Assembly: GCA_000002445.1 (NCBI GenBank)
Contig: CP000066.1
Coordinates: 512,001-576,000 of the forward strand
From: Trypanosoma brucei
Taxonomy: Eukaryota
Length of the DNA: 64,000 bases
Reading direction: 5' to 3'
Shown here: one piece after another, positions 56,373 through 57,776 of the stretch
How positions within the stretch are numbered: position 1 is the stretch's first letter
Layout: each line of letters starts with the position of its first letter
Program-made: the position numbers and the translations under genes
Notes under the pieces: generated by a model
What the model was told of the DNA's origin: nothing
What the model saw: the letters and a program-made list of their open reading frames with translations, nothing else
Database searches by the model: none

Positions 56373-57776
56373 TCAGGGTCCCAAATTATCGGGGTCGTCC
56401 GTAACCACGTCAGACTCCAGCACCCCCAAGGAGAGGAGGGCATTCTTCCCCATAGTTACGAACTCGGTGGGGCCAGACACAAAGGCTAAAGGGGGGGAAG
56501 TGCGGACAAACTCGCCCATAAATTCCTCAACGTCCCACAATGTCGGACGACGCCCACAAGTGGTATGAGGAAGCAACAGGTGGTTTGACATTGCACTTGG
56601 GTCTTGTTTGGTGAGGTAACAGTGAAATCGATACATGAAGCGATCGCCCTGATGGCTGCACCAACGAACAAGGTCATCACACCTTGGAAGGAGTGACTCC
56701 TTCCCATCCACGTGGAGATGAACAACCTGCATCATGGCAATATTCCCCTCATCCGTCGGCACAGGCGATTGCGAACCGTCGAAGAGACGCTTAAGCAAAG
56801 CATACGGTGCGGTCAAGCCGATACCAGCGGAGAGAACAACAACACGTCCCTCCAATTCGAGCAACCGCCTGATGTTATGCGAGAGAGTAAAACGGCCGCC
56901 GACTAAAAGAAGAGGAAATCGCTGTTGCAGACCATTTTTAAGCATCCATGTGCTCCCTCCGCGGCTTCCTTTAGCTTCCTTAATGATCAAAGTGAAGAGA
57001 CAACCCTCCTTGTCCGTCTCAACTACCGTCCACCGACGCCTTAGAAACCTGCCGGAGGGGCCACGGATAGGTAGTTCCAAGTCTACAAACTGCCCAGGTT
57101 GGGGGAAAAGATCCAAAACACCACGGCAACTACTGAAAAAGAACTCCTTTGTGTCATCACACACGTGCTCCGTTCGTGCACAATACACAACTTTGCCTTG
57201 CGTGAAGCCACATGGAAGCAATTGGCTTCCGGACGACCCAAGCATTTCCAAGACCTGCCCACTACGGAGGGAACTGTGAAAGGTTTTAGAACGAATACCG
57301 TCGTTGCTGATAGGCTTCGTCATGGGGCGATCCTTGTTCGCTAAAGCCATCTCGGCGTACGCATCACTGTCGAGAGCAGGACCAGAGGTGTTTAGCGTCA
57401 CATACACTTCACCATGTTCAACCGTGACTGTATGAATGCGCTGCTTCCTCCCCTTGGATCGCACAACCTGCTTGCCATTTCTGTCGATAGTGCCCGATGG
57501 TGTCATCTGCAGCGCCCAGTAGAGACCCTCTCCAGTGTCTAAGGTAATGCGGTACTGATGCCACGGACAAACAATGCAGGGGTGGCCACCCATATCCTCA
57601 ATATCGCCCTCAAGTAACGGCCCCCCATGGTGGTAACAGGCGTTGTCGATAGCATAAAATTGGTTGTTATAAAGGCACACAACAATATTCCGTTCGCCGC
57701 ATTTAATAAGTTGTCGACTTTTATCTTTAAACAGATGGGCCGAACCGACGTGGATACGAACAGGCTCTCCCGTCAT
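56373..57776 (-). CDS. Rieske [2Fe-2S] domain fused to ferredoxin-NADP reductase-like FAD/NAD(P)-binding oxidoreductase
   Basis: Rieske boxes CYHHGG ... CPWH 20 aa apart at N-terminus; C-terminal RFLRRRWTVVE (FAD-binding RxYS-like), VVLSAGIGLTAPYALLKRL (NAD-binding GxGxxP-like). Confidence 0.7.
   Translation of the reverse strand: MTGEPVRIHVGSAHLFKDKSRQLIKCGERNIVVCLYNNQFYAIDNACYHHGGPLLEGDIEDMGGHPCIVCPWHQYRITLDTGEGLYWALQMTPSGTIDRNGKQVVRSKGRKQRIHTVTVEHGEVYVTLNTSGPALDSDAYAEMALANKDRPMTKPISNDGIRSKTFHSSLRSGQVLEMLGSSGSQLLPCGFTQGKVVYCARTEHVCDDTKEFFFSSCRGVLDLFPQPGQFVDLELPIRGPSGRFLRRRWTVVETDKEGCLFTLIIKEAKGSRGGSTWMLKNGLQQRFPLLLVGGRFTLSHNIRRLLELEGRVVVLSAGIGLTAPYALLKRLFDGSQSPVPTDEGNIAMMQVVHLHVDGKESLLPRCDDLVRWCSHQGDRFMYRFHCYLTKQDPSAMSNHLLLPHTTCGRRPTLWDVEEFMGEFVRTSPPLAFVSGPTEFVTMGKNALLSLGVLESDVVTDDPDNLGP

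Follow-up and report, generated by a model that had tools for sequence, protein, structure and literature searches.

A Trypanosoma brucei protein that joins an RFESD-type Rieske domain to a divergent FNR-superfamily module

The gene and the two halves of its product

The stretch of Trypanosoma brucei DNA considered here (64,000 nucleotides of contig CP000066.1, assembly GCA_000002445.1, positions 512,001 to 576,000; hereafter the window, with coordinates counted from its first letter) carries on its minus strand a gene that encodes, in a single polypeptide, a Rieske [2Fe-2S] domain and a module of the ferredoxin-NADP+ reductase (FNR) superfamily. An uninterrupted open reading frame (ORF) fills exactly positions 56373-57776, with the stop codon at 56373-56375, and this complete coding sequence (467 aa plus stop, 56373..57776, minus strand, as are all the features of the protein given below) is preceded by an in-frame stop three codons 5' of the ATG, which makes a longer N-terminus impossible. 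The product is identical, over 467 of 467 residues (100% identity), to a protein of T. b. brucei TREU927 (XP_843810.1 / AAZ10251.1, UniProt Q57Z95), which is labelled 'hypothetical protein, conserved' in NCBI and 'Rieske domain-containing protein' in UniProt. A first reading of the DNA sequence alone, referred to here as the original prediction, had described one 467-aa chain made of a Rieske domain followed by an FNR-like reductase, and had singled out four motifs: CYHHGG (residues 47-52), CPWH (70-73), RFLRRRWTVVE (~243-253) and VLSAGIGLTAPYAL (314-327). This description is borne out by the continuous frame, by a match of the N-terminal half to the Pfam model Rieske_4 (E = 1e-33) and by a match of the C-terminal half to flavohemoglobin (E = 3e-14), and the existence of a T. 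brucei protein joining an RFESD-type Rieske domain to a divergent FNR-superfamily module is confirmed.

The N-terminal half, residues 5-145 (57342..57764), has an all-beta core with a short helix at 136-141. The match to Rieske_4 (PF22543) covers residues 9-130 and profile positions 2-118/119 and scores 116.6 bits, to be compared with a gathering cutoff of 28.4 bits; the same model is matched by 34 of 34 orthologues. The closest solved relative is mouse RFESD (PDB 3D89, E = 7.6e-31), and the predicted fold of this half was also matched to 3D89 by Foldseek (E = 1.7e-12, template modelling (TM) score 0.85, root-mean-square deviation (rmsd) 2.3 A, 42% identity). The two Rieske boxes are found at the N-terminus, where the original prediction had placed them: box I, C47-Y-H49-H-G-G (57621..57638), and box II, C70-P-W-H73 (57558..57569), contain the four predicted ligands of the cluster, C47, H49, C70 and H73, which are invariant in all 34 aligned orthologues and in 13 of 13 sequences of a set that includes stand-alone members of the family. 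The loss of these ligands in orthologues, indicated beforehand as a sign that would speak against the prediction, was not observed. Outside the ligand boxes, the motifs GDIED, SKGxKQRxH and SDxYA are common to the protein, to a vertebrate RFESD (Spea bombifrons XP_053313695) and to the stand-alone RFESD-type sequences used for comparison (~150-170 aa). The Rieske_4 match, the similarity to 3D89, the ligands and these family motifs therefore place the N-terminal half, as a predicted member, in the RFESD family, an assignment narrower than that of a generic Rieske domain and one that had gone unnoticed in the original prediction. The extra disulfide Cys pair of the high-potential Rieske proteins of the bc1 type is absent from the CYHHGG and CPWH boxes, and Rieske boxes lacking this pair are of the low-potential ferredoxin/oxygenase type. 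The Pfam scan of the T. brucei protein found no catalytic domain of the Ring_hydroxyl_A or PaO type, and the PDB matches 3n0q and 3vca are confined to its Rieske part; judging from this domain content, the protein is not the alpha subunit of a Rieske non-haem iron oxygenase.

The two halves are connected by an interdomain linker, residues 146-192 (57201..57341), of low predicted local distance difference test (pLDDT) score in the AlphaFold2 (AF2) model, in which residues 159-189 are predicted to be disordered and residues 161-190 have a pLDDT of 33-38. With a value of 0.42, its conservation is the lowest of all segments. The middle of the linker bears a near-invariant (I/F)HS...RSG motif (consensus IHS..RSG), which in T. 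brucei reads F-H167-S168-S-L-R-S-G173 (57258..57281) and in which H167, S168 and G173 are at least 90% conserved. The motif is absent from stand-alone RFESD proteins and could be a docking or regulatory element.

The assignment of the C-terminal ~275 aa (residues ~193-463) to a very divergent FNR-superfamily module is supported by profile and fold comparisons. The module comprises an FAD-binding beta-barrel subdomain, residues 193-297 (56886..57200), recognized from its strands, from a sub-threshold Pfam match and from profile and fold matches, and an alpha/beta NAD(P)H-binding subdomain, residues 298-463 (56388..56885), recognized from its strand-helix pattern and, likewise, from profile and fold matches. 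A family profile built from 18 orthologous C-terminal halves matched in the PDB the flavohemoglobins (~3e-14), BenC, the benzoate dioxygenase reductase (4.6e-9), and phthalate dioxygenase reductase (PDR; 4.3e-7), and more weakly nitrate reductase, cytochrome b5 reductases (b5R) and the dehydrogenase domains of NOX. Since the profile gave these clear FNR matches, the matches of the C-terminal half to uracil-DNA glycosylase in a single-sequence PDB search (E~0.06) were rejected as noise. Alignment of the profile to flavohemoprotein by hhalign (probability 99.5%, E = 3.5e-22, 234 columns) brought the motifs of both subdomains into register: on the FAD side R-x-W-T with RQY[ST], GGSxWLH with xxSNxLH and GGxFT with xGDFV; on the NAD side SAGIGITP with SAGIGITP, CGP with CGP and the C-terminal TE.F with YE.F. 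In the same alignment, RFLRRRWTVVE and VLSAGIGLTAPYAL, which the original prediction had taken as FAD-binding and NAD(P)-binding elements, correspond indeed to RxY[ST] and GxGxxP, respectively.

In the T. brucei protein the flavin motif RxY[ST] is R247-R-W249-T250 (57027..57038), with Trp for Tyr; it aligns with RQYT of a flavohemoprotein and, in the family profile match, with RQYS of E. coli Hmp (1gvh), and R-x-[WY]-[TS] is present in 33 of the 34 sequences. The FAD-pyrophosphate motif GxxS/T is G273-G-S275 (56952..56960; consensus GGSxWLH, aligned with VSNWLH of Hmp), in which S275 is at least 90% conserved. The dinucleotide motif GxGxxP corresponds to S316-A-G-I-G-L-T-A-P324 (56805..56831), aligned with SAGIGITPM and SAGVGQTPM of flavohemoproteins and having its Pro displaced by one residue, and the Cys-Gly-Pro motif to S434-G-P436 (56469..56477), aligned with LCGP and having Ser for Cys. 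The C-terminal tail TDDPDNLGP (56376..56402) is without the flavin-capping E-x-F aromatic of the relatives, whose ends align with YE.F of Hmp. The second strand of the NAD subdomain has at its end Asp357, placed by the alignments opposite the acidic position of NADH-using flavohemoglobins, which may be read as weak evidence of a preference for NADH.

In the AF2 model, which has a mean pLDDT of 83.9, residues 196-293 form a beta-barrel of six strands with a helix at 274-281, and alternating alpha/beta elements follow at 298-459. With Foldseek, 293 PDB entries matched at E<=0.001; of the 50 that were listed, every one except 3D89 is of FNR type. The top match of the reductase half was Ncb5or/CYB5R4 (6MV1), and the match of this half to 4eh1 had a TM score of 0.77 and an rmsd of 3.8 A. 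A non-flavoprotein fold of the C-terminal half, the other result anticipated as unfavourable to the prediction, hence did not appear.

The reductase half has diverged too far to be recognized in single-sequence Pfam searches, and for this reason most public names stop at 'Rieske domain-containing protein': the Pfam FNR models are reached by 9-11 of the 34 orthologues (E<=0.01), and NAD_binding_1 or NAD_binding_6 by 10-11 of them. Automated annotation has glimpsed the architecture in the T. melophagium protein, named 'Flavoprotein pyridine nucleotide cytochrome reductase-like', and in JGI COG names. The Rieske-FNR architecture is thus already present in databases, under-annotated. The Bodo saltans orthologue (CUG91957.1, P0095 in our set) bears the misleading name 'transmembrane protein, putative'.

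Distribution of the fusion and changes in trypanosomatids

A word-indexed search returned 51 clusters, every one of which is a full-length fusion, belonging to Trypanosoma, Leishmania, Leptomonas, Phytomonas, Angomonas, Strigomonas, Novymonas, Lotmaria, Bodo and Neobodo and to unlabelled environmental sequences. By an exhaustive HMMER search of 1.84 billion representatives, 185 proteins were retrieved at E<=1e-30; beside full-length fusions they include numerous stand-alone RFESD-like proteins of ~150-230 aa and further long forms. Fusions were found in the diplonemids Namystynia, Diplonema, Artemidia and Sulcionema, in the euglenids Entosiphon, Ploeotia and Euglena longa, and in the dinoflagellate Durusdinium trenchii, whose genome annotation uses the name 'cytochrome-b5 reductase'. 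The check across kinetoplastids suggested with the original prediction therefore shows that the fusion is kept throughout this group and extends to diplonemids and euglenids. The arrangement had also been called uncommon in eukaryotes; this holds for the searchable literature but not for sequence space, as 104 of the 242 fetched proteins carry both domains according to local hidden Markov models (HMMs). A D. trenchii protein of 856 aa (CAK9002893.1, P0237) is named 'Nitrate reductase [NADH]' despite its RFESD-type Rieske N-terminus.

Twenty proteins longer than stand-alone RFESD were scanned with Pfam. Rieske_4 is combined with FAD_binding_6 and/or NAD_binding modules in 13 of them, one of which has a cytochrome b5 between the two parts; six matched Rieske models only, and the remaining one (P0104) is a merged gene model. 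Beyond the FNR modules and the inserted cytochrome b5, no fusion partner was found in these 20 proteins, neither a catalytic oxygenase domain nor another enzyme domain or acceptor. For the role in a demethylase- or desaturase-type redox relay suggested with the original prediction, the analysis yielded evidence neither in favour nor to the contrary. The protein with the additional cytochrome b5 (P0182, 618 aa, EukProt g704.t1) has the order Rieske_4, cytochrome b5, FAD_binding_6/NAD_binding_1, and would put the entire chain NADH -> FAD -> haem b5 -> Rieske in one polypeptide. On the prokaryotic side, the signature CYHxGGPLxxGDIED gave no match in 185,579 prokaryotic species genomes, a search that covers the exact signature only, and no prokaryotic relative was confirmed by tblastn in a single-protein scan.

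The question of whether the fusion arose once or several times was addressed by scoring each reductase half against an HMM of the kinetoplastid C-terminal half. Kinetoplastids scored 180-355 bits, a group formed by P0045, P0047 and P0049 186-194 bits and euglenids 108-122 bits; the best unfused FNR protein reached 86 bits, diplonemids 15-76 bits and Durusdinium 39 bits. In the PDB, the reductases of Diplonema and Euglena longa are nearest to flavohemoglobin, as in kinetoplastids, while that of Durusdinium is of the b5R/nitrate-reductase type (2eix, E = 1.2e-23, versus 6e-6 for flavohemoglobin; signature YANRTEDE). The HMM scores and the nearest PDB types therefore suggest at least two independent fusions, namely an ancestral one in Euglenozoa, with a flavohemoglobin-like partner, and elsewhere at least one separate event that brought in a b5R-like reductase. 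P0047, a sequence labelled 'Colponema vietnamica', groups with P0045 (629 aa), and on the contig of the latter (ENA ERZ22232002 NODE_641, 53.7 kb; gene at 10001-11890) 10 of the 11 called genes share a strand, with short gaps between them, which suggests a kinetoplastid-like layout. Colponema is cultured on kinetoplastid prey, and the transcript P0047 may come from the prey; it is not relied on here as a kinetoplastid-type fusion outside Euglenozoa.

Within the family, the flavin-side motifs R-x-[WY]-[TS], GGS and GGxF are retained in essentially all members, as resulting from the motif table, and the changes concern the NAD side and the C-terminus of trypanosomatids. The family consensus AGIGITP is canonical; T. 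brucei, with G318-I-G320-L-T-A-P324, keeps both glycines and has the Pro one residue late, the Pro is missing in several Leishmaniinae, and the second Gly is replaced by Ala or Ser in T. cruzi, Phytomonas and L. braziliensis. SGP takes the place of CGP in T. brucei, T. vivax, T. theileri and T. melophagium, most other members having CGP. The C-terminal TE.F(D)(F) of bodonids, euglenid-like and other non-trypanosomatid members is TD[DE]x in trypanosomatids. T. brucei thus lacks both the CGP and the C-terminal aromatic of the FNR superfamily, two features that are frequent in it and not universal. Identity of the T. brucei protein to those of other species ranges from 53 to 72% in the Rieske domain, from 22 to 58% in the reductase and from 18 to 46% in the linker, and both folded parts are therefore under constraint, the Rieske domain most strongly. 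The orthologues of Leishmania, Leptomonas and Novymonas (e.g., P0014, P0017 and P0023; 537-578 aa) bear low-complexity insertions of ~30-60 aa, placed in the FAD barrel behind its 'ELELP' strand as well as within the NAD subdomain, which are absent from Trypanosoma and bodonids.

Relation to known redox systems and proposed electron path

FNR modules fused to an electron acceptor are classically found in flavohemoglobin, in the phthalate and benzoate dioxygenase reductases, in nitrate reductase and in Ncb5or. Among the published architectures searched, no description was found of a Rieske-type acceptor fused to an FNR-type reductase, and in a review of iron-sulfur flavoenzymes the only Rieske centres named are those of complex III. 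The nearest relatives of the C-terminal half in sequence and fold are flavohemoglobin (Hmp/FHP) and bacterial Hcr-like reductases. Flavohemoglobin shares with the family the FNR motifs in register (SAGIGITP, GSxWLH, CGP, ExF) and the fusion of the reductase to a one-electron acceptor; the T. brucei protein differs from both relatives in having a Rieske cluster instead of a globin haem or a plant-type [2Fe-2S] cluster, SGP for CGP, a Pro moved by one residue and a C-terminus devoid of the aromatic. The oxygenase reductases, including PDR (2PIA), are significant matches of the family profile, and BenC (1KRH), T4moF (4WQM), MMOR and NahAa have the same order of iron-sulfur domain, FAD barrel and NAD domain. 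However, the iron-sulfur domain of the BenC/PDR type is a plant-type Cys4 domain (Fer2), in whose place the T. brucei protein has the Rieske domain, and Fer2 (PF00111) gave no match in it at E<=1, whereas the nearest unfused relatives of the C-terminal half carry Fer2. In oxygenase systems the Rieske ferredoxin, where there is one, forms a third component of its own and receives its electrons through Fer2. On these grounds the protein is, as far as its sequence tells, not a reductase of the PDR/BenC type.

Ncb5or/CYB5R4, which consists of cytochrome b5, CS and b5-reductase domains, is likewise a eukaryotic, soluble, single-chain combination of reductase and carrier; the T. brucei protein, in contrast, lacks both the b5 and the CS domain, and its reductase is flavohemoglobin-like rather than b5R-like. 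CMP-Neu5Ac hydroxylase (CMAH) uses a b5R -> b5 -> Rieske chain, a route that is mirrored by P0182 and by the Rieske_4/b5R-type fusion of Durusdinium. Proteins of the AIFM3/AIFL and NirB-NirD types also unite a Rieske or NirD-like domain with a flavin reductase in one chain, but their flavoprotein has the two-dinucleotide-binding-domain fold of the glutathione-reductase type, in contrast to the FNR type of T. brucei. The similarity of the N-terminal half to NirD is weak (TIGR02378, E = 4e-10, far under the cutoff), Pfam gave no match of the protein to the Pyr_redox family, and the predicted folds indicate that it is not of the AIF/NirB type.

We consider it probable, with a likelihood of about 65%, that the protein is a soluble iron-sulfur flavoprotein in which electrons pass from NAD(P)H to FAD, then to the Rieske [2Fe-2S] cluster and finally to a separate acceptor. 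The ORF, the identity of the two domains, the conservation of motifs and ligands and the recurrence of the fusion are observed; cofactor binding, catalytic competence, the direction of the electrons, the preference between NADH and NADPH, the cytosolic location and the external acceptor are what we infer within this scheme. NAD(P)H would give a hydride to FAD on the C-terminal module, where the flavin would be gripped in the barrel by R247-x-W249-T250 and G273-G-S275 and the nucleotide would lie on the G318-x-G320 helix. FAD would then pass two sequential single electrons to the tethered Rieske cluster held by C47, H49, C70 and H73, a transfer that would be thermodynamically feasible, as the redox potentials allow an FNR-type flavin to reduce a Rieske centre of the low-potential type. 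The Rieske domain would swing on its ~45-residue, largely disordered linker and, once reduced, act as a built-in ferredoxin handing electrons to the separate acceptor. The N-terminus leaves no room for a presequence, and the protein is therefore predicted to be probably cytosolic.

Several observations weigh against this scheme. FAD_binding_6 scores 19.0 bits in T. brucei, under the cutoff of 21.1, and NAD_binding_1 and NAD_binding_6 give no match in the single-sequence Pfam search; according to the motif table, T. brucei shares with other trypanosomatids a relaxation of three features of the NAD(P)H site; the predicted TM score (pTM) of 0.58 in AF2, together with the disordered linker, means that the arrangement of the domains is not fixed by the model. 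Direct transfer from the FAD of an FNR module to a Rieske centre, without a plant-type ferredoxin or a cytochrome b5 between them, is unusual in characterised systems. The polycistronic gene order provides no functional context, as expected in trypanosomatids. In the literature searched, neither experimental evidence for, nor a functional study of, RFESD or any Rieske-FNR fusion was found, and no experimental data on the T. brucei gene emerged by accession or name or in the supplements of a spatial-proteomics paper.

Some of these points would also be explained if the trypanosomatid FNR-like half could no longer bind NAD(P)H or transfer hydride and were kept as a structural or docking scaffold, in which case FAD may perhaps still be bound and the Rieske cluster may be reduced by some other enzyme. 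The relaxation of the NAD-site motifs specifically in trypanosomatids (Pro, second Gly, SGP and C-terminal aromatic), the lack of a Pfam NAD_binding match in T. brucei and the position of the NAD subdomain as the least conserved folded part are in line with this possibility. We regard it as improbable: RxWT, GGS, both glycines of G-x-G in T. brucei and GGxF are kept, the NAD subdomain is modelled with pLDDT mostly of 83-97 and is 45-52% identical among Trypanosoma species, and a Cys-to-Ser change or the loss of the aromatic is known to alter the kinetics or affinity of FNR enzymes without abolishing their activity. Rather unlikely, yet deserving some weight, is also the hypothesis that the Rieske cluster is an end point instead of a shuttle, the protein being a self-contained terminal enzyme that reduces a small molecule (ferric chelates, quinones, nitro compounds, O2, NO) or a sensor of redox state or iron via NAD(P)H. 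The Rieske domain of the protein is of the RFESD 'soluble Rieske-type ferredoxin' kind and shows no sign of an additional catalytic site, and the widespread occurrence of ~150-aa stand-alone RFESD fits a diffusible carrier better than an end point; for its part, the terminal role agrees with the observation that an acceptor domain is never seen fused, with the nature of flavohemoglobin, the nearest reductase relative and itself a self-contained terminal enzyme, and with the treatment of vertebrate RFESD as an iron-binding/iron-storage protein (PMC8956264).

Finally, adjacent Rieske and reductase genes might have been read as one ORF through an error of annotation or assembly, as P0104 (2626 aa), which merges the fusion with the next two genes, could lead one to suspect. 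The frame is nevertheless continuous across 467 codons without a stop, the same single ORF recurs in independent genomes (the 51 clusters) and in diplonemid and euglenid transcriptome assemblies, and the linker carries a conserved motif of its own; such an artefact is effectively refuted.

With the NAD(P)H-driven iron-sulfur flavoprotein retained as the preferred explanation, its interest lies more in the link with RFESD than in the T. brucei gene, whose design would not surprise a redox enzymologist. Animal RFESD resembles the N-terminal 145 aa of the T. brucei protein in sequence (42-44% identity), fold (TM 0.85), ligands and GDIED/SKGxKQRxH/SDxYA motifs, but is a stand-alone protein of ~157 aa, whereas the trypanosome domain is covalently fused to its reductase via the IHS..RSG linker. 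Human and animal RFESD has a crystal structure and an orphan function, and a study in which it appears (PMC8956264) handles it simply as an iron-binding serum protein; the fusion gives a hint to the class of its reductase. From the recurrent, apparently independent fusions in protists, an FNR/b5R-family reductase can be predicted for animal RFESD, and we propose tentatively, at somewhat less than even odds, that RFESD-type proteins, including the human one, are dedicated one-electron carriers in an NAD(P)H-driven pathway conserved in eukaryotes, the reductase of which belongs to the FNR/b5R superfamily. The partnership would be revealed by the protist fusions, to a flavohemoglobin-like module in Euglenozoa and, in dinoflagellates and others, to a b5R-like one that may or may not be accompanied by cytochrome b5. 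The prediction is directly testable on candidates of the CYB5R family. If it is true, the T. brucei protein would offer a tractable, single-polypeptide route to the acceptor enzyme of the pathway, and the trypanosome fusion is suited to genetic approaches (RNA interference, tagging, proximity labelling) in the hunt for this acceptor. A pairing of RFESD with OXNAD1, considered as a candidate, finds support neither in the literature searched nor in the word-limited profile search with the C-terminal half; among the nearest unfused relatives that this search gave, namely bacterial Hcr-like reductases, flavohemoglobins and PNPOx-FNR proteins, none is named OXNAD1.

Neighbouring genes and other reading frames

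Among the ORFs of at least 250 aa in the whole window (1-64000), 20 of 21 lie on the minus strand, the exception being 22355-23170 (plus strand), which is contained in a larger minus-strand ORF. This near-uniform orientation indicates that the window is one directional polycistronic cluster, typical of trypanosomatids. None of the neighbours is related to the fusion in function: they encode an SNF2-PHD helicase, a PP2C/SpoIIE-like phosphatase and an EF-G/EF-2-like GTPase. The already mentioned P0104 consists of Rieske-FNR, PP2C/SpoIIE-like and SNF2/PHD parts, matching the gene order of the window from 57776 to 51494; this protein is an erroneous merged model, yet it shows conserved synteny in another kinetoplastid-like genome.

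The helicase, of the SNF2 family (968 aa, 51494-54400, minus strand), has at its C-terminus an NSD-like PHD (PF22908, E = 2.9e-06), a chromatin-remodeller architecture; its ORF begins at TTG, and the true start is probably an internal ATG. On the other side of the fusion, 58057-60729 (minus strand) encodes the 890-aa EF-G/EF-2-like GTPase (GTP_EFTU + EFG_IV + EFG_C), a non-canonical EF-2 by length and layout, which may be a factor similar to EFL1/Ria1 or to Snu114. An ORF on the plus strand, 56734-57279, lies antisense and wholly within the Rieske-FNR coding sequence; its 181-aa translation is rich in Ser, Arg and Pro and is most likely a non-coding antisense by-product.

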